Source: Parvularculales bacterium (GTDB lineage: Bacteria > Pseudomonadota > Alphaproteobacteria > JAPOUT01 > JBAJNM01). From it: DNA of 64,000 nt. Shown here one piece after another: positions 40,153 through 52,843 of the stretch (positions are counted from its first letter, which is position 1; each line of letters begins with the position of its first letter). The stretch is taken from positions 22,847 to 86,846 of the forward strand of contig JBAJNM010000001.1 in the NCBI GenBank assembly GCA_036881865.1, read 5' to 3'. The notes beneath the pieces were generated by a model. That model did no database searches and had not been told where the DNA came from. It saw only the letters and a list, made by a program, of their open reading frames with translations. A program made the position numbers and the translations under genes.

Positions 40153-40644
40153 AAAAATAATAACTTTCGAATACTAGAGCCTCTATGAAGTGGGAAAACA
40201 TAGTTAATATCAAGTTAATAAACTGTACATTTTATAGTCGGAGGACCTCAATTCAAAAACAGTTAGAATATGTCCTCTGTTCTCCCTTACTTTTTTCCAC
40301 CGGAAAAAATACATATCCAGCCTTTACGGAATAATGTGGAGAAGAATAATTCACGATTATAGCATATTTTCCCACATCTCTCTTTTAATTATTGGCTCCA
40401 TTAATCAATGAAATAGACAAGAGAACATATGAAAATCATCGTGTAAGTTTCCATCTACGCCTATTGTCCACATAGTTCTAAAATACTTAAGACTTCTTTT
40501 AAACATGAGAAGCCGTAACTTCGCTGTACACAAGTTCAGGAGAATTTATGATATACACATGACCCACAGGGATTCACATCTATCTACTCCTTATATTATA
40601 AGACTCTATATATTACAAAGGAGATAAACAGATAACAAGGAAAC
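40153..40644. other. candidate chromosomal replication origin (oriC) in the AT-rich hemE/DUF299 intergenic region
   Basis: About 33% GC against about 50% in the flanks. TTAATATCAAGTTAA (TTAA-N7-TTAA, 40204-40218). DnaA-box-like 9-mers TTGTCCACA (40464-40472), TGACCCACA (40560-40568) and TTCTCCACA (complement of 40336-40344). Confidence 0.6.
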
Positions 40645-43575: not shown

Positions 43576-44844
43576 ATGCAGAAAATGAAACTGCAAGAAC
43601 TAAAGGCCAAACAACCAACAGAACTCCTAGCTTTTGCCGAAGAACTGGAAATTGAAAATGCCAGTGCCCTGCGTAAACAGGATATGATATTTGCCATATT
43701 AAAAAAACTGGCCGAACAGGAGGTTAGTATTTTCAGTGAGGGTGTTGTTGAGGTTGTGCAAGACGGCTTTGGATTTTTGCGCTCAAAGGAAGCCAACTAT
43801 TTACCCGGTCCTGATGATATCTACATAAGTCCCAATCTGGTAAGGCGGTTTTCATTGCGCACAGGTGATACGGCAGAAGGAGAAATCACCGCGCCTCGCG
43901 ATGGAGAGCGTTATTTTGCCTTAAACAAGGTAACCTCTATCAATTTTGAAGACCCTGAAAAAACCCGCCATAAAATCCATTTTGACAATCTAACGCCTTT
44001 GTATCCCGATGAGGGAGTGGTCATGGAGATTGATAATACCGATGATAAAAAAGATTTATCAACCCGCGTCATTGATATTGTAGCCCCTCTGGGCAAGGGA
44101 CAGCGTGCCCTTATTGTAGCCCCCCCCCGCACCGGCAAAACAGTTCTTCTGCAAAACATAGCTCACTCAATTACGGCTAATCACCCGGAATGTTATCTGA
44201 TTGTGTTGTTGATTGACGAGCGTCCGGAAGAGGTGACTGATATGCAACGCTCTGTTCAGGGGGAGGTTATCTCGTCCACGTTTGACGAGCCTGCCACCCG
44301 TCACGTGCAAGTAGCGGAAATGGTCATCGAAAAAGCCAAACGCCTTGTGGAGCATGGTCGTGATGTTGTTATTTTGTTGGATAGCATCACCCGTTTAGGG
44401 AGAGCCTATAATACGGTGGTGCCTTCTTCCGGTAAGGTGTTGACCGGTGGTGTGGATGCCAATGCTTTGCAACGCCCAAAGAGGTTTTTTGGGGCGGCCC
44501 GTAACATAGAAGAGGGGGGATCCTTGACGATTGTATCCACAGCGCTGATTGACACAGGCTCTCGTATGGACGAGGTGATTTTTGAAGAGTTCAAGGGAAC
44601 CGGTAATTCAGAACTGGTGCTAGACCGAAAGGTAGCGGACAAGCGTGTGTTTCCGTCAATTGATATCCTCAAATCAGGCACCCGTAAGGAGGAGTTACTG
44701 GTGGACAAAGCAGCTCTTCAGAAAATGTACATTTTGCGCCGGATTCTTAATCCTATGGGATCGGTGGATGCTATTGAATTTCTGCTGGATAAACTCCGCT
44801 CTACCAAGACTAACAATGAGTTCTTTGACTCTATGAATACATGA
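43576..44844 (+). CDS. rho: transcription termination factor Rho
   Basis: 422 aa with RNA-binding OB domain, Walker A and Q/R loops. Confidence 0.97.
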
Positions 44845-44903
44845 AAGCGCTGATAATTACCACGACTATGGGTAGCGTTGTAGGCTAGTGCTAGTTACGG
44901 TTT

Positions 44904-45623
44904 GTGCTGGACAAACAAGCCTTATCTGGAAATAATAGGGAACAGTGTCTAAAGCGGAGCATGGAGTCCGTAGAAACCAGAGAAGGAGTATCCATCATGG
45001 TTAGCAATGTCTCTTACCCCTCTTCTGTATCCTCCCCTGTTGATTCCAAGGAGCGTGCAGTCTTTACTGCCATGGATCATAGTACGGCGGAAGATTGGAT
45101 GAAAATAGGTGCCGCCGCCCATCCCTTTCAGGCGGGGCTTGCTGATAGAGTTTTATCTCATCTTAAATTACTGGATGGTGATTTCGGGGGTTTTGCCGTT
45201 GACCGGTTAACTCACTCGCTACAATCGGCGACATTGGCTCACAAGGCAGGTAAGGATGAGGAATATGTTGTGTGTGCGTTGTTGCACGATATGGGCGACA
45301 CGCTAGGATGTTATAATCATGCCGATATTGCTGCAGCTGTCTTGAAGCCGTTTGTTTCAGAGAAAAACCATTGGATGGTTGAGAAGCACGGTATCTTTCA
45401 AGGCTATTATTTTTTCCATCATCTGGGTCTTGACCGGGAAATGCGCGAACAGTTTAGAGGCCATCCTCATTTTGAGTATACGGCGCAGTTTTGTCATTTA
45501 TATGATCAAAACGCGTTTGACCCATCGTATGAAACTATGCCGTTGTCAGCTTTCGAGCCGATGGTGAAACGGGTTTTTGAGCGTCCTAAAAACAGCATCT
45601 ACAAACGCGAAGCAGCTGAATAG
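44904..45623 (+). CDS. HD-domain protein (PhnZ/MIOX-like metal-dependent phosphohydrolase/oxygenase family)
   Basis: His/Asp ligand motifs (HSLQSA...LLHDMGD...H...H). The start is possibly the internal MDHSTAEDW. Confidence 0.65.
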   Translation: MLDKQALSGNNREQCLKRSMESVETREGVSIMVSNVSYPSSVSSPVDSKERAVFTAMDHSTAEDWMKIGAAAHPFQAGLADRVLSHLKLLDGDFGGFAVDRLTHSLQSATLAHKAGKDEEYVVCALLHDMGDTLGCYNHADIAAAVLKPFVSEKNHWMVEKHGIFQGYYFFHHLGLDREMREQFRGHPHFEYTAQFCHLYDQNAFDPSYETMPLSAFEPMVKRVFERPKNSIYKREAAE

Positions 45624-45650
45624 CAAGCCGTTTTATAGCATCAAGTAAGC

Positions 45651-45692
45651 AAGGCCGGACTCAGGAAATATGAGGCTGGCCTTTATTACTTT
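45651..45692 (+). terminator. possible intrinsic terminator after the HD-domain gene
   Basis: AAGGCCGGACTCA-ggaaata-TGAGGCTGGCCTT hairpin followed by TATTACTTT. Confidence 0.4.
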
Positions 45693-45829
45693 AGTAAGAG
45701 GATATTTGAGTTCCTAAATACAGATAACCAATACAATCTTGGGGAGATGTAAAGAGTGGTCGTGAATATGAACGGTTGGCATCGTGTAAGCTACACAAGA
45801 CAATAAAAAACTAGGAAACTCTCTATAAA

Positions 45830-48658
45830 ATGCGTTTGTCCTGGAATGAGATTCGTATCCGTGCCGCTGCCTTTGCTAAGGATTGGGAAGGTGAGGGCTA
45901 TGAAAAGGGGCAAACGCAGCTTTTCTACCGCGACTTTTTCAAGGTCTTTGGTGTGTCCGTCCGTCGTGTCGCCAGCTTTGAAGAGCCGGTTAAGAATTTG
46001 GGCGACAGGCGCGGTTTTATCGACCTGTTCTGGAAAGGTGTCGTTCTGGTTGAACAAAAAAGCATCGGGCGGAATCTTAAGAAGGCAAAGATACAGGCGT
46101 TAGATTATTTCCCGGGTCTGAAAGATACGGATCTTCCCCGTTGCATTCTTCTCAGCGACTTCCAGAGCTTTGAGTTGTACGATCTGGAGGAAGATGACGC
46201 GCTCTCAATAACGATTGCCGACCTGCCAAAACATGTGGAAAAATTCGGTTTTATTCTTGGAGTACAGAAACGCTCATTTAAGGATCAGGATCCGGTAAAC
46301 ATTCAAGCGTCCGAACTGGTCGATAAACTACACGACGCACTTGAGGATGTCGGGTATACAGGCCATGATCTTGAGCAGTTTCTTGTCCGCACTGTTTTTT
46401 GCTTATTTGCGGACGATACCGGCATTTTCGAGCCGCGCGATATCTTTCTTGACCTTCTGGAAAACCGAACCCGCGAGGATGGTTCCGACCTTGGCGGCTG
46501 GTTATCTCAGTTGTTCCAGATACTGAATACACCTGAAGACAAACGCCCCAAGAACCTTGATTTGGATCTTGCCCGCTTTCCGTACGTGAATGGTGATTTA
46601 TTCCGTGACCCTTTGCTGATCCCGTCTTTTGATACCGTCATGCGGCGCAAGCTGATTGATGCTTGTCAATTTGATTGGTCTGGTATATCCCCTGCGATAT
46701 TCGGTTCACTTTTTCAGTCGGTGATGGATAAAGATGAACGTCGTGCACAAGGTGCACATTACACGACCGAGAAGAACATCCTCAAGGTAATCGAGCCCCT
46801 CTTTTTAACCGATCTTAGAGACGAGTTTGACCGCCTCAGGGTCCGCAAGGACAGTCGACGTCGTGTCGAATTGCAGGCATTTCATAAACGTCTGGCCGCT
46901 CTGACATTTTTTGATCCGGCCTGCGGCTGTGGCAACTTCCTGATTATTACCTATCGTGAATTGCGGGTTCTTGAGATCGATTTGATCCGCGAGCTTCGCG
47001 CTTACCGCACTAGTGAAGACCAGCAAGAGCTGGACGCCGCTGATCTGTCACTTTTGAACGTCGATCAGTTTTACGGGATTGAGATTGGCGAATTTCCCGT
47101 TCGTATCGCTGAAACCGCGCTGTGGATGATTGACCACATCATGAACAATAGGCTCAGCTTGGAGTTCGGGCAGAATTTTGTGCGTATTCCGCTCAGGAAA
47201 TCGCCGCATATTGTCCATGGTGATGCACTGGAAACAGATTGGGCCAGCGTTCTGCCGCCCTCAAAATGCAGTTTCATTTTGGGCAATCCACCTTTTAGTG
47301 GTGCGAAGCATCAAAAGGACGAGCAACGCTCACAGGTTCACGCCATTGCGGCCTTGGGCAAGTCTGGGGGTACATTGGATTATGTCACTGCGTGGTTCAT
47401 TAAGGCAGGTGAGTATGTAAAAGGCACGTCTATACACATTGGTTTCGTGTCAACTAATTCCATAACCCAAGGTGATTAGGTAGCACAGCTTTGGCCAATC
47501 CTGTTTGAGCGCTACAAGCTGGAAATTACCTTTGCCCATCGCACCTTCGTCTGGGGTTCTGATGTGCGCGGCAAGGCTCATGTGCGTGTTGTCATCATCG
47601 GGCTAACAGAATCCAAGGCTGTTCCAAAGGATCGGCGGTTGTTTTCCTATGATGACATTAACGGCGAACCCCATGAAAGTGTACACACTGCCCTATCACC
47701 CTACCTGTTCGACGCAAGCGGCTTGTTTGATTCGCACATTGCGGTACGGGAAGAGAGCCAACCTATAAATGGTTTGCCGAAATTAATTACAGGATCTCAG
47801 CCAATTGACGATGGAAATTTCATTATAGGTTCTGAAGAATACCATCCATTGAAGAAAGAAAACCCTGAGTTTGCATCTTGGTTTCGGCCGTTTATAGGTG
47901 CACGGGAATTTATTCAGGGTTCAAAACGTTATATTGTTCACCCTGCTTCAATACCACCGCAGATAGCTAAAAAATTAAACGGATTGAGCAGGCGCCTTGA
48001 GGCCGTTCGAAAATTTCGTCATGCAAGCAAGAGAATATCAACAAAAGCGATTGCCGATAGTCCAGGCGAATTCGGCGTCACAGTCATTCCAGACGAGCCA
48101 TTTCTCGCGATTCCGCAGGTGAGCAGTGAACGCCGTCAATATGCGCCTATCGGCTGAATTAATCCGCCATTAATGCCGAGTGATAAGCTCCGTGTTTTAC
48201 TCGGCGCTACAAAACCTCTATTTGGCGTCTTAACCTCGTCAATGCACATGGCTTGGATGCGCCTTGTCACAGGGCGTCTGGAAAGCCGTTACATGTATTC
48301 TGTCGGCGTGGTTTACAACACCTTTCCAATGCCACCAGTTTCTGAATTTGTTTTAGGGAAATTGGAGCCTTTGGCTCAGGCCGTGCTTGATGCCCGTGCG
48401 GCGCACCCAGATTCAACGTTAGCGGATCTGTATGATCCCGACCTGATGTCATCGGTGTTGCGTAAAGCCCATCAGGCACTTGACCGCTCCGTCGACGGTC
48501 TTTACCGCAAACAGGCCTTTTCATCGGACCGTGAAAGAGTAGAGCATCTGCTGGCGATGTATGAAAAAATGAAAGCCCCTCTGGCAGATAAGAGTGGAAA
48601 GAAGACCATTGCAAGAAAGCAGACTACTAAGAAAATCAAAACACGAGTTGATTCATGA
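45830..48658 (+). pseudogene. MmeI-like type IIL/IIG restriction-modification enzyme (nuclease + N6-adenine MTase + TRD), inactivated by two in-frame nonsense codons
   Basis: ORFs 45830-47479, 47564-48157 and 48173-48658 share one reading frame. They are separated only by TAG (47477-47479) and TGA (48155-48157). N-terminal MmeI-type nuclease region (GFIDLFWKGVVLVEQKS). MTase motif I FDPACGCGNFLI and motif IV LGNPPF. Total 943 codons. Confidence 0.8.
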
Positions 48659-48700
48659 TACTTAAACTGAATTCAATAGACGGTTTTTATGAACTGTGGA

Positions 48701-49414
48701 TTAACGCATATGCGTATTGAAAAAATCTGCGGTACGATTGTTGGCGAGTTTAGCTGCAGCTTCATCAAAATGAGCCCCGCCCTGCCGTGCAAAGGCGTGG
48801 TCCTGGCCCTCGTAAACATGAATACTGGTGTGAGTATTTTTATCTAACCCGGCGCGTATCTGAGCCTGAGCCTCCGGAGGCACGAATTCATCTTTGGAAG
48901 CTATATGGAGCATAAGGGGATTTTTTATCTGCACTGCTTCTGTTAAATAGTTTTGAATGTTGACACCGTAATATCCAACACTGGTATTGATATCGGTGCG
49001 ACAGGCTGTAAGGTATGCCAGAAGTCCTCCCAGACAATAGCCCACTGCGCCAACTTTGCCTGTGCAACTATCAAGACTGCGCAGATGACTTATAGTATCG
49101 GCGATATCATCAACACCACCATCTACATCAAAACGTCCGAACAGGTCAAAGGCTTGCTGCCAGTCTTGCTCGTTTTGATCTGTGAGTTCAATGTCGGGTT
49201 CAAGCCGCCAGAATAAATCCGGACAAAGGGCTGTGAAACCTGCGCCGGCAAGATTATCGGCAATGCCACGTATGACGGCATTAACGCCGAATATTTCCTG
49301 AATAACAACAATACCAGGACCTCGTCCGCTGTCCGGTGTTGCCAGATAGCCGCTAAACGAACCGGCACGACCTTTGATAGTTATAGATGTTCCGCTCATA
49401 GGTGAATCCTTCAT
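48701..49414 (-). CDS. dienelactone hydrolase family protein
   Basis: DLH fold with nucleophile elbow GYCLGG. Start placed at the internal MKDSPMSG; the track ORF extends to 49576. Confidence 0.8.
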   Translation of the reverse strand: MKDSPMSGTSITIKGRAGSFSGYLATPDSGRGPGIVVIQEIFGVNAVIRGIADNLAGAGFTALCPDLFWRLEPDIELTDQNEQDWQQAFDLFGRFDVDGGVDDIADTISHLRSLDSCTGKVGAVGYCLGGLLAYLTACRTDINTSVGYYGVNIQNYLTEAVQIKNPLMLHIASKDEFVPPEAQAQIRAGLDKNTHTSIHVYEGQDHAFARQGGAHFDEAAAKLANNRTADFFNTHMR

Positions 49415-49457
49415 ATTTTGTGTTGCCAGATGAGTTTGGCGGGGGAAAGAGGCCTCG

Positions 49458-51494
49458 TCAAGAGCGGGGTCTGAGCGCCTGTATGATAGCCTCCGGCGTC
49501 TTAAGACGAGGCGTACACATCTGGCCACGGCAGATAATAACCCCGGCAGGGGAGGTGGAGTCATAACGCACAACATGAGCCGGTGGTGCGGCCTTTAGAG
49601 CAACCGCATGTAAAGATTGCGCGACCTTTCCTCCACACAAAGTTATCTCTACGGCGTTGAACAGTTGGTCCATACCGTTAAGAAAGCCCGCCATGGCAAA
49701 AGCATTGTTGGCAGAATCTCCTGAAAATGCCCGTGTGTGAGTTTCTGTCCGTGCTTGCCAGTCTGCCTCGTCATCAAGGGAGTTAAGACGTGCAAAAACA
49801 TCTACCATCACCCCATTGGCGGCCGGGGTAGCATTATCGTGGGTTGGACGGGTGTGCACAATGAGGGCTTCGGCATCGGAGGCGGTATAAAAATAACCTC
49901 CCCGTTCTTTGTCCCGATAGTAATGATCAAACAGAGTAAGCCAATCTGTTGCCGTGGCGAGATATTTATTGTCTCCGGTGGTCTCAAACAGCATAAGAGC
50001 AGCGCGTATCATGTTGGCGTAATCATCGGAGACTGCAAGCCCGCCGCATTTTCCAGCACACCATGAGTGATGCAACCGTCCATCTTGCATCATAGCATTG
50101 ACCACAAAGTCAAAAGCCTTGAGAGCGGCGTCAAGCCAGTCCGGCCTGTTGAAAGTAAGACCCGCCTGCGCCAAGGCCTGGATGGCAAGACCGTTCCAGT
50201 CAGCCAGCACTTTGTCGTCTAAAGCAGGGGCTATGCGTTGAGCGCGGACAGCAAACAAACGAGCGTGGGCTTCAGAAAACCGGCTTTCTGTTTCCTCTGC
50301 GAGTTCTGTGTCTTTTTTTGGGGATGTGTTGATGTCTAAGCGGTTTAGAATGTTGACATTTTCCCAATTGCCCTGGGGAGTTATGTCATAGGCCTTGCAA
50401 AAATCCTCTGCATCTACCCCTAAAACCGAGAGTACCTCGTCATAGGACCACGTATAAAACCTACCTTCACCTCCATTGCTGTCCGCATCAAGAGAGGCTG
50501 CAAACGCTCTCCCCGGCAGAGTCATCTCGCGTATCATCCAGTCTATAGTTTCACTAACCTGTAGCCGATAATGTTCCCTACCGGTGGTGCGCCACACTGT
50601 GGTGAGGAGAGAGACCAACAGAGCATTGTCGTAAAGCATTTTTTCAAAATGAGAGGCTAACCACCTCCTCGTCCGTTGAATAACGTGCAAACCCTCCCCC
50701 TAAATGATCATAAATACCGCCTGCACACATACCATCCAGAGCTCGCGTGACGGCATTTTGAAGATCTGTATCATTTGTGCGCACTCCAACCCGCCATATG
50801 AGTTCTAAAATCATCGGTTGAGGAAACTTGGGTGCTCCTTTAACGCCACCATGAACAGGATCCATGATGGTAAGCAAACGCTGCGCTGCTTTATCAGGTA
50901 GGTCTTGCATGGGTTCTACAAGAGGGGGTGCACTTTCTTTAAGACGGGAGAGATGGTGCAACAGGATAGCGTAATTTTTCTCTATTTTTCCGGAGCTTCC
51001 CTATAAAGACGGGCAATCTCCTCCAGTAAATTAACAAAACCGGGCCGTCCATAGCGAGGTGTTTTCGGAAAATATGTACCTCCGAAAAATGGCTCTCCCT
51101 TTGAGGTGAGAAACATGGTCAAAGGCCAACCACCCTGCTCTCCCAAACCATGAAGGGCGCTCATGTATATGCTATCAATGTCGGGACGCTCTTCACGGTC
51201 CACTTTTATATTGATGAAATGGCAGTTCATAACATCGGCAACGGAAGTGTCTTCAAAACTTTCATGCGCCATAATGTGATACCAATGACAGGCCGCATAA
51301 CCTACAGAAAGTAAAATGGGTTTATTGTCCGCTTGCGCTGCTGCAAGGGCATCAACCCCCCAAGGCCGCCAATGAACAGGGTTATCTTTATGCTGCCGCA
51401 GATAGGGACTGGTTTCTTGTTCTAAAAGATTGCTTGCCGTGTGGGTCATGATAGGTTCAGCGTTCATTTGACCGTATGCTGTTGTCGGATGCAA
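49458..51494 (-). pseudogene. DUF255 thioredoxin-domain protein (YyaL/SPATA20-like) split by two compensating frameshifts
   Basis: Homology continues across three ORFs (50982-51494, 50644-50961, 49458-50690) in frames 0, +1, 0. Breaks lie at an A5 run near 50975 and at GAGGAGG near 50665. Confidence 0.7.
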
Positions 51495-51508
51495 TCCTGT
51501 TATGATAA

Positions 51509-52843
51509 ATGAATAAAACCTCTACCATTGTCGCTTTGTCCACACCTCCTGGCCAGGGAGGAATTGCAGTGGTACGCCTGTCCGGTCCTCAAAGCGGAGC
51601 AGCCATTGAAGCCTTGACCGGCAAATCTCCTGCAGAGCCGCGCCGTGCGGTGTTGCGGTCTTTATATGATGATGCGGGTGCACTACTGGATAAAGGATTA
51701 GTGCTGTTTTTTTCTGCCCCTGCCAGCGCTACAGGCGAGGACATGGCCGAGTTTCATGTCCATGGGGGGCCGGCGGTTGTAGCGGGAGTTTTGGAAAGTC
51801 TTACAGGGTTATCGGGTATTGATCTTGCAGAGCCGGGGGATTTTACGCGCCGCGCTTTTGAAGCCGGTCGCTTGGATTTAACGGCGGTGGAAGGATTGGC
51901 AGATCTGATAGCCGCTGATACAAAAGCTCAGCATCGTCAGGCGGTGCGTCAGATGAACGGCGCACTGGCACATTTGTGTGATGGCTGGCGGGATCAGTTG
52001 GTGAAGGCGTTGGCGTATCTGGAGGCGGAGATCGATTTTCCTGATGAGGATTTACCGGAGGCTTTGTCAGCTGAAGTTGTATCTCCCTTAATGGCGGTAG
52101 TAGAAGATATGGAGCGTACGTTGAACCGTGTTGGAGGCGAGCGCATCCGTGAGGGTGTTCAGGTAGCCATCATAGGTCCACCCAATGTTGGTAAGTCTAG
52201 CCTTCTTAATGCATTAGCGCGGCGTGAAGCAGCGATTGTGGCGGACGAATCAGGCACCACGCGGGATGTTATAGAAGTTGCTCTTGATCTTGGGGGCATG
52301 CCGGTTGTGTTGTTTGATACGGCGGGCTTGCGGGAGGTTGAAGAGGGTGTGGAGGCGGAAGGTGTGCGACGGGCGCGCGTTAGGGCAGATCAGGCGGATA
52401 TACGCCTTATCATGGTGTCGGTGGAAACATCAGTAGAGGATGCGCGGGATGTTCTTGCTTTGCGCCGTTCTGGTGATGTGGTTGTTGTGAACAAACAGGA
52501 TTTGGGGAGGCACAACACTATAGAAGGAGCTTATCCGTTATCTGTTTTAACAAGTCAAGGTTTAGAGATGTTAGAAGAGGTATTGGTGCAAGCGGTTACA
52601 GAGCTGGCAGGTGAAGGGGAGGGTACTGTGGTGACGCGGTTGCGTCATCGGGAGGCGCTGGGGGCGGCACATAGAGCATGCGCACGGGCGCTTGAGGTTT
52701 TGTCATCGGGAGGTAGCGCCAAAGTAGAACTGGCAGCAGAGGATGTACGGCTTGGTGTGCGGGCGTTGGGCCGTCTTGTGGGTCGGGTAGATGTGGATGA
52801 TATTTTAGACGTTATTTTTCGCGATTTTTGCATCGGCAAGTAA
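51509..52843 (+). CDS. mnmE: tRNA modification GTPase MnmE
   Basis: G-domain (GPPNVGKSSLLN) and the C-terminal CIGK tetrapeptide. Confidence 0.95.
   Translation: MNKTSTIVALSTPPGQGGIAVVRLSGPQSGAAIEALTGKSPAEPRRAVLRSLYDDAGALLDKGLVLFFSAPASATGEDMAEFHVHGGPAVVAGVLESLTGLSGIDLAEPGDFTRRAFEAGRLDLTAVEGLADLIAADTKAQHRQAVRQMNGALAHLCDGWRDQLVKALAYLEAEIDFPDEDLPEALSAEVVSPLMAVVEDMERTLNRVGGERIREGVQVAIIGPPNVGKSSLLNALARREAAIVADESGTTRDVIEVALDLGGMPVVLFDTAGLREVEEGVEAEGVRRARVRADQADIRLIMVSVETSVEDARDVLALRRSGDVVVVNKQDLGRHNTIEGAYPLSVLTSQGLEMLEEVLVQAVTELAGEGEGTVVTRLRHREALGAAHRACARALEVLSSGGSAKVELAAEDVRLGVRALGRLVGRVDVDDILDVIFRDFCIGK

Follow-up and report, generated by a model that had tools for sequence, protein, structure and literature searches.

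A probable young pseudogene of an MmeI-family restriction-modification enzyme, interrupted by two nonsense codons, in a Parvularculales metagenome-assembled genome

A restriction-modification (R-M) gene that keeps one reading frame from end to end and is interrupted by two nonsense codons raises the question of whether it is a dead defence system, an enzyme still made in full or in parts, or a product of the assembly. Such a gene lies at positions 45830-48658 of a 64,000-nucleotide stretch, here called the window, of contig JBAJNM010000001.1 (positions 22,847 to 86,846 of the forward strand; assembly GCA_036881865.1), which belongs to the metagenome-assembled genome (MAG) of a Parvularculales bacterium. 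A preliminary description made from the letters alone had seen in it an MmeI-like type IIL R-M gene silenced by nonsense mutation. We conclude, with a probability of about 0.86, that the locus is a genuine and evolutionarily young pseudogene of a single-polypeptide MmeI-family (type IIL/IIG) R-M enzyme on the chromosome of this MAG. Coordinates are window positions on the plus strand unless stated otherwise, and residue numbers refer to the bridged frame, in which both stops are counted as codons.

Translation of 45830-48658 gives 943 codons in a single frame, made up of 940 sense codons, two internal stops and a terminal TGA. The internal stops are a TAG at 47477-47479 (codon 550, in the context CAA GGT GAT TAG GTA GCA) and a TGA at 48155-48157 (codon 776, ATC GGC TGA ATT AAT). 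A mechanical list of open reading frames (ORFs) places 45830-47479, 47564-48157 and 48173-48658 in this same frame, with in-frame starts after each stop (GTG at 47564 after the TAG, ATG at 48173 after the TGA). The three ORFs had been read as one 943-codon protein in the preliminary description, whose coordinates and stop codons are correct and whose quoted motifs (FFDPACGCGNFLI, LGNPPF and SITQG) are all present. Translation, Pfam and the MmeI alignment divide the gene into three fragments. Fragment 1 (45830-47479, 549 codons and the TAG) holds the nuclease domain, the helical spacer and about 80% of the methyltransferase (MTase) domain. Fragment 2 (47480-48157, 225 codons and the TGA) holds the end of the MTase domain including W575 (47552-47554), the N-terminal part of the target recognition domain (TRD-N) and the start of its C-terminal part (TRD-C). 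The rest of TRD-C and the C-terminal helical bundle make up fragment 3 (48158-48658, 166 codons and the terminal TGA). In the NCBI annotation (locus tags V6Z81_) only a 109-residue C-terminal piece is named 'type IIL restriction-modification enzyme MmeI'.

The bridged protein matches five Pfam MmeI domains in canonical order, all above cut-off and with E-values from 7e-82 to 3e-26: MmeI_N at residues 11-173 (E 9.5e-43), MmeI_hel at 179-258, MmeI_Mtase at 343-605, MmeI_TRD at 636-836 and MmeI_C at 844-918. The top PADLOC model was REase_MTase_IIG, a type IIG fusion of restriction endonuclease and MTase, with 1120 bits over model positions 2-909 of 912. A phmmer search against PDB sequences returned one match, chain C of the MmeI structure 5HR4, in which query residues 1-920 align with MmeI 1-908 (E 6.6e-263). 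By these sequence comparisons, the domain order and the end-to-end alignment with MmeI are far beyond chance, and the three ORFs do not come from unrelated proteins. The MTase and TRD module of MmeI has a distant homologue in PglX of bacteriophage exclusion (BREX) systems, which has no PD-(D/E)XK nuclease domain and has PglZ, BrxC and other proteins as partners. The window gene, in contrast, carries the nuclease domain MmeI_N, has REase_MTase_IIG and not PglX as its best PADLOC model and has no PADLOC match among the four flanking proteins scanned, and an identity as BREX PglX was rejected.

The catalytic motifs are still encoded. The nuclease residues of MmeI have been named (PMC4833311, PMC2731913), and their counterparts D65, E75 and K77 (MmeI D70, E80 and K82), the match to which Morgan et al. 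2009 used as a criterion of the family, are invariant in a 20-sequence alignment; the PD-(D/E)XK motif D65...E75-Q-K77 (MmeI D70...E80-M-K82) spans 46022-46060. Motif I of the gamma-class N6-adenine MTase, as defined in PMC4833311, reads FFDPACGCGNFL at residues 360-371 (46907-46942), within the stretch FFDPACGCGNFLII at residues 360-373, and motif IV, NPPF, occupies residues 486-489 (47285-47296) within ILGNPPFSG (residues 483-491). The adenine box H310, F489 and W575 corresponds to H314, F484 and W570 of MmeI, of which Trp570 is absolutely conserved and forms a wall of the pocket holding the flipped adenine (PMC4833311). All three elements of a gamma-class MTase are thus found in the DNA, W575 lying downstream of the first stop and being absent from the translated product. 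The TRD and the C-terminal bundle are fused to the MTase, the flanking genes encode an HD-domain hydrolase and a dienelactone hydrolase, and none of the four flanking proteins scanned matched a PADLOC defence model. The ORF itself is interrupted at codons 550 and 776. On these sequence features, the gene can be classed as an MmeI-family member by descent and a pseudogene in state, which upholds the earlier assignment to the MmeI-like type IIL group.

To identify the residues that the stops replaced, 5.8 billion clustered proteins were searched and 8000 candidates, all significant, were scored, of which the best 120 were listed and aligned. These 120 homologues are mostly 920-950 residues long (range 901-959), with a top identity of 79%. 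The column of the TAG is Gln in 120/120 and the column before it Glu in 120/120, where the window gene has Asp (E549D). The column of the TGA is Trp in 117 of the 120, Phe in two and Tyr in one, and MmeI itself has Phe764. At the DNA level, homologues read GAACAG, GAGCAG, GAGCAA or GAACAA at the first site and TGG at the second in all eight homologue DNAs read. Because the columns are Gln and Trp and the codons CAG or CAA and TGG, the lesions are CAG>TAG at codon 550 and TGG>TGA at codon 776, both single transitions.

The first lesion (47474-47479, GAT TAG against GAR CAR for Glu-Gln in homologues) thus removes Gln550, equivalent to MmeI Q546, with E549D beside it, in the stretch NSITQG(E>D)-Q. 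A conserved SITQG-[E/Q] region had been named in the preliminary description, and the alignment to family members that it proposed as a check, here run on the 120 homologues, confirmed SITQGEQ as conserved, with an invariant Gln at the site of the first stop and a nearly invariant Trp at that of the second. The second lesion (48155-48157) takes the place of Trp776, inside TRD-C. The base directly beside the first stop was also changed (47476-47477, GAR CAG > GAT TAG), and the two adjacent changes may be one dinucleotide mutation or two separate hits. A single transition would turn 52 codons of the repaired ORF (CAG, CAA, CGA and TGG) into a stop, and 48 of these 52 are Gln or Trp codons. Stops landing on a Gln and a Trp are therefore expected by chance and give no sign of recoding.

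What the cell would make from this gene can be read from the domain limits of MmeI, in which the MTase domain covers residues 301-620, the TRD 621-825 and the C-terminal bundle 826-919 (PMC4833311). The TAG falls within the MTase domain, so that the 549-residue product is without the last ~70 residues of the MTase fold, the W570 equivalent, the whole TRD and the bundle. Since translation ends upstream of the entire TRD, the product would be unable to recognise a site, and it should be inert, with no directed methylation or cleavage expected. A surviving N-terminal MTase fragment, for which the preliminary description had proposed to search methylome data, is unlikely on the same grounds. The second stop lies within TRD-C (MmeI 746-825), with the counterparts of specificity residues E751 and N773 on either side. 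Enzymes of the MmeI family methylate one strand only and cleave about 20/18 nt from an asymmetric site (PMC2731913, PMC4833311). With both activities held in one protein, their simultaneous loss would be harmless to the host, and the earlier argument that a fused R-M enzyme can die by nonsense mutation without self-killing is sound.

If the stops were artefacts, reflecting a minority allele or a chimeric metagenome consensus, most cells would carry an intact and active enzyme. Coming from a MAG, the sequence represents a population consensus, the gene two downstream shows a -1 frameshift within an A-run, as can result from faulty assembly, and Morgan et al. discussed the coexistence of active and silent alleles, which they proposed to occur side by side in natural populations (PMC2731913). 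However, both lesions are base substitutions in non-repetitive sequence and not homopolymer indels, as had been pointed out from the start, and a second assembly yields the same sequence. Logan contig SRR27962760_9453 is 100% identical to window positions 44457-51936 over 7480 bp, with the same gene fragments and both stops, and the exact 549-residue product of fragment 1 is also called on it. Because this separately built contig carries both stops, an assembler error is unlikely, and the identical contig and the substitution nature of the changes both speak against an artefact. About 20 other genes of the window that were tested match full-length family profiles, no intact allele of more than 79% identity occurs among the 5.8 billion clustered proteins, and a search of JGI (Joint Genome Institute) metagenome contigs for the sequence flanking the TAG, with any letter allowed at the two changed bases, gave no exact hit. 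We therefore consider an artefact unlikely. The gene would be intact, without any error, if the organism read TAG as Gln and/or TGA as Trp under a non-standard genetic code; both reassignments are known, and the stops do stand on Gln and Trp columns. Stop usage among 52 large non-overlapping ORFs of the window (TAA 22, TGA 21, TAG 9) speaks against it, as genes ending in TGA or TAG, such as hemE, hemH, infB, rho and mnmG, match full-length family profiles. No other gene in the window has an in-frame TAG or TGA, except for a frameshifted thioredoxin pseudogene, in which they are a by-product of the shifted frame. Since TAG and TGA end full-length ordinary genes, the code is standard and this explanation is effectively refuted.

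With a standard code, a full-length enzyme could still arise through readthrough or suppressor tRNAs and provide low-level or conditional restriction. Glutamine-inserting amber suppressors and tryptophan-inserting opal suppressors would put Gln and Trp back at exactly the residues replaced, and the rest of the ORF is intact. Yet the Gln and Trp match is what chance predicts from the 52 codons one transition from a stop, neither a tRNA gene nor an Rfam element was found in the 64-kb window, and 30 of the 52 large ORFs there end in TAG or TGA. Moreover, full-length protein would require two independent suppression events, whose combined yield would be very low, and E549D at an invariant Glu would persist. 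The rescue by a suppressor that the preliminary description had considered thus found nothing in its favour in the tRNA content or stop usage of the window, and we judge it very unlikely. No more credible, in our estimate, is a split or truncated system in which a 549-residue nuclease or MTase would work with downstream recognition subunits. Fragment 1 does retain the nuclease motif and MTase motifs I and IV, and in-frame starts follow each stop. Against a functional split enzyme, both breaks lie inside domains: codon 550 is within the MTase fold, upstream of the W570 equivalent, and codon 776 within TRD-C. The 28 codons after the TAG would be missing, as would W575, and each of the 120 top-scoring homologues is one polypeptide chain of about 900-960 residues. 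Clustered at 90% identity, fragments 1 and 3 group with sequences of this MAG only and fragment 2 is not on record, so the split state is common to no sampled relative; in cluster look-ups by exact sequence, no source of the fragments came up other than this MAG and one Logan contig. The stops could finally reflect on/off switching, at the level of the population, of an enzyme that modifies a single strand and is risky to its own host, as Morgan et al. speculated, a scenario that we hold to be quite improbable. Under it, silent alleles would be one or two reversions away from activity, or leaky via near-cognate readthrough with Gln or Trp, re-selection would occur under phage pressure, and the source community would contain both intact and silenced alleles.

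The preferred reading, a genuine pseudogene, leads to the question of its age. In the 20-sequence alignment with intact homologues, the gene has no indels or frameshifts of its own. Seven replacements (L129I, M434I, E549D, A574V, A579V, H586R and P874S) are private to it and fall in columns with a conservation of 97% or more, against a median of one per homologue. Pairwise nonsynonymous divergence (dN) is 0.05-0.15, and 0.05 in the first 549 codons, and synonymous divergence (dS) is saturated, with a proportion of synonymous differences (pS) of 0.69-0.85. The low dN against saturated dS points to long purifying selection over nearly all of the lineage history. Random base changes introduced into the repaired ORF make a stop in 3.1-3.9% of cases, or one stop per 26-33 substitutions. 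One post-inactivation stop at this rate would correspond to a few tens of neutral substitutions, or about 1% divergence, with a wide error. The lack of indels, the seven private replacements and the single post-inactivation stop are, roughly, mutually consistent with a short neutral period. Dating by dN/dS was rejected because dS is saturated against every available homologue, and a scan of GTDB genomes found no relative of more than 79% overall identity, so that dating the lesions through a sister species is not possible. Generalised genome erosion was set aside, as only one other broken gene was seen in the window beside the ~20 that match full-length profiles. The description of the locus as a recently decayed defence system is thus supported in the form of a fairly young pseudogene.

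Taken together, we propose that the ancestor was an enzyme of ~940 residues, built of a PD-(D/E)XK nuclease, a helical spacer, a gamma-class N6-adenine MTase, a TRD and a C-terminal bundle. By analogy with characterised members, its target would have been an asymmetric 6-bp site, methylated on one strand, with cleavage of unmodified sites at a distance of about 20 nt. The transitions CAG>TAG at codon 550 and TGG>TGA at codon 776 created the premature stops. The first stop alone would end translation inside the MTase and before the TRD, so that cleavage targeting and methylation would disappear together, a loss that could be tolerated because both activities reside in one protein. The second stop, E549D and a few other replacements at conserved sites would then have piled up in the absence of selection.

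Several points weigh against this reading. The Logan contig may derive from the same sequencing run as the MAG, in which case it is an independent assembly and not independent data, and the evidence on the alleles comes from assembled consensus sequences. The loss of function is deduced from domain anatomy. A few intact homologues reach 8-11 private replacements, which places the seven of the window gene in the upper tail, and the signal of relaxed selection from these replacements is weak. Since dS is saturated and the nearest relative stands at 79%, only an indirect estimate can be made of when the lesions arose.

The surroundings of the pseudogene were annotated with NCBIfam and Pfam. The minus strand carries coaE, aroE, maf and a kinase/pyrophosphorylase gene, and the plus strand hemE, hemH, hemJ, rho and the HD-domain hydrolase gene, followed by the MmeI pseudogene. 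After it come the dienelactone hydrolase gene and a thioredoxin-domain gene, both on the minus strand, and then mnmE, mnmG and three plus-strand ORFs. Cumulative GC skew over 1-64000 has its minimum at ~39-41 kb, and a 492-bp AT-rich gap (40153-40644, GC ~0.42) lies directly upstream of hemE, which is the usual position of the replication origin oriC in Alphaproteobacteria. Only two DnaA-box matches, each with one mismatch, were found inside this gap (40335 and 40464). The skew minimum and the AT-rich gap before hemE make an origin here plausible, and the MmeI locus probably lies near it.

A complete Parvibaculaceae genome (CP126168) has the same backbone, with three unrelated genes in the slot between the HD-domain and dienelactone hydrolase genes, namely a carbonic-anhydrase-like gene, an alcohol dehydrogenase gene and a LysE-family gene. 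As the content of the slot differs, the MmeI gene occupies a variable slot of a conserved region. The NCBIfam and Pfam scan of its neighbours revealed no integrase or other mobile-element genes, and flanking direct or inverted repeats, promoters and terminators did not rise above chance. G+C content at third codon positions is 0.50 in the pseudogene, 0.30-0.51 in its neighbours and 0.56-0.69 in its homologues; the value near that of the neighbours suggests that the gene has long been resident or that its donor had a similar composition. No match to the gene was obtained by megablast in E. coli genomes or PLSDB plasmids, by which an enterobacterial or known plasmid gene was ruled out.

Two of the neighbours call for comment in their own right. 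The ORF of the HD-domain hydrolase (44904-45623) begins with GTG and encodes 239 amino acids, and its homologues have ~195-205; NCBI and Logan call a 208-residue protein starting at 44997, and the true start is probably downstream of that in the ORF list. Two genes downstream of the MmeI pseudogene, the YyaL/DsbH-type thioredoxin-domain gene (49458-51494, minus strand) is also broken. It is colinear with an intact 674-residue CP126168 protein (45% identity), with residues ~150-262 in another frame (~50641-50988). The -1 shift in the A-run lies near 50985-50989, a second shift is found in GACGAGGAGGTGG near 50665-50680, and the CxxC motif reads CHWYH, not CHWCH. Pseudogenes thus account for 2/5 genes between rho and mnmE.

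The closest homologues, P0001 and P0002, come from MAGs of uncultured marine Alphaproteobacteria. At 79% identity, they have 937-939 residues and the same five domains, and P0002 shares with the window gene the TRD-C signatures IPQVSSERR and ...MYSVGVVYNTFP. Unlike the window gene, both are intact and are cargo beside toxin-antitoxin genes, whereas neither mobile-element genes nor flanking repeats surround the window copy. One of the two lies by a PhdYeFM antitoxin gene in an integrative element with a relaxase, a type IV secretion system coupling protein, a mer operon and an integrase. The other is placed between a HigB/HigA pair and Abi_C in a prophage-like island with integrase, primase, portal, capsid and terminase genes (these loci are L002 1-14542 and L006 3000-21514). 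Such a setting fits a horizontally mobile defence gene. Among the homologous loci retrieved from GTDB genomes, three also look disrupted, two of them by frame changes (L016 10001-12674, a Bacteroidota MAG, and L024 10001-12773, an Alphaproteobacteria MAG) and one by an insertion of ~0.9 kb at residues ~660 (L021 10001-13642, a Rhizobiaceae MAG). They could be real pseudogenes or MAG errors.

In comparison to MmeI from Methylophilus methylotrophus (PDB 5HR4), the window gene shares the five-domain order, colinearity over the full length, the D...ExK motif, motif I FDPACGCGNFL, NPPF and the His/Phe/Trp adenine box. It differs in the two premature stops and E549D, in an N-terminal loop that is 5 residues shorter, and at the specificity positions Q763/D785, K786/M822 and T654/Q657. 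Because of the last difference, the ancestral recognition site was probably not TCCRAC. The covariation rules of Morgan and Luyten (PMC2731914) were applied to the alignment with 5HR4. The pair E818/R820 (MmeI E806/R808) suggests C at position 6 and K786/M822 (MmeI A774/R810) C at position 4, and Q763/D785 (MmeI E751/N773) is ambiguous, leaning toward G at position 3. The ancestral site may therefore have been something like NN(G?)CAC. Most of these positions (D785, K786, E818, R820 and M822) are carried by fragment 3.

Silencing of this kind is already in the literature. The family-defining paper of Morgan et al. 2009 described three characterised enzymes that are disrupted in their native hosts, NmeAIII by a TAG in place of Trp at codon 32, DraRI by a TAA at codon 841 and ApyPI by a frameshift; resequencing confirmed that the genes are disrupted, and the enzymes became active again once the single site was repaired (PMC2731913). 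The window gene adds one more natural nonsense-silenced member of the family and nothing new on the biology of defence systems, so that its value lies mainly in correct annotation, in which the three ORFs should be merged as one pseudogene and not kept as separate proteins. Repair of TAG to CAG and of TGA to TGG, possibly with D549E, could recover an enzyme with maybe a new specificity, as in the cases of NmeAIII and DraRI. As in NmeAIII, DraRI and ApyPI, a well-conserved MmeI-family ORF is silenced in its native host, and the residue lost can be predicted from family conservation. Those three, in contrast, have one lesion each and were reactivated experimentally, whereas the gene described here is known from its sequence. 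It is a further instance of a described state, from which it differs only in having two stops and E549D.

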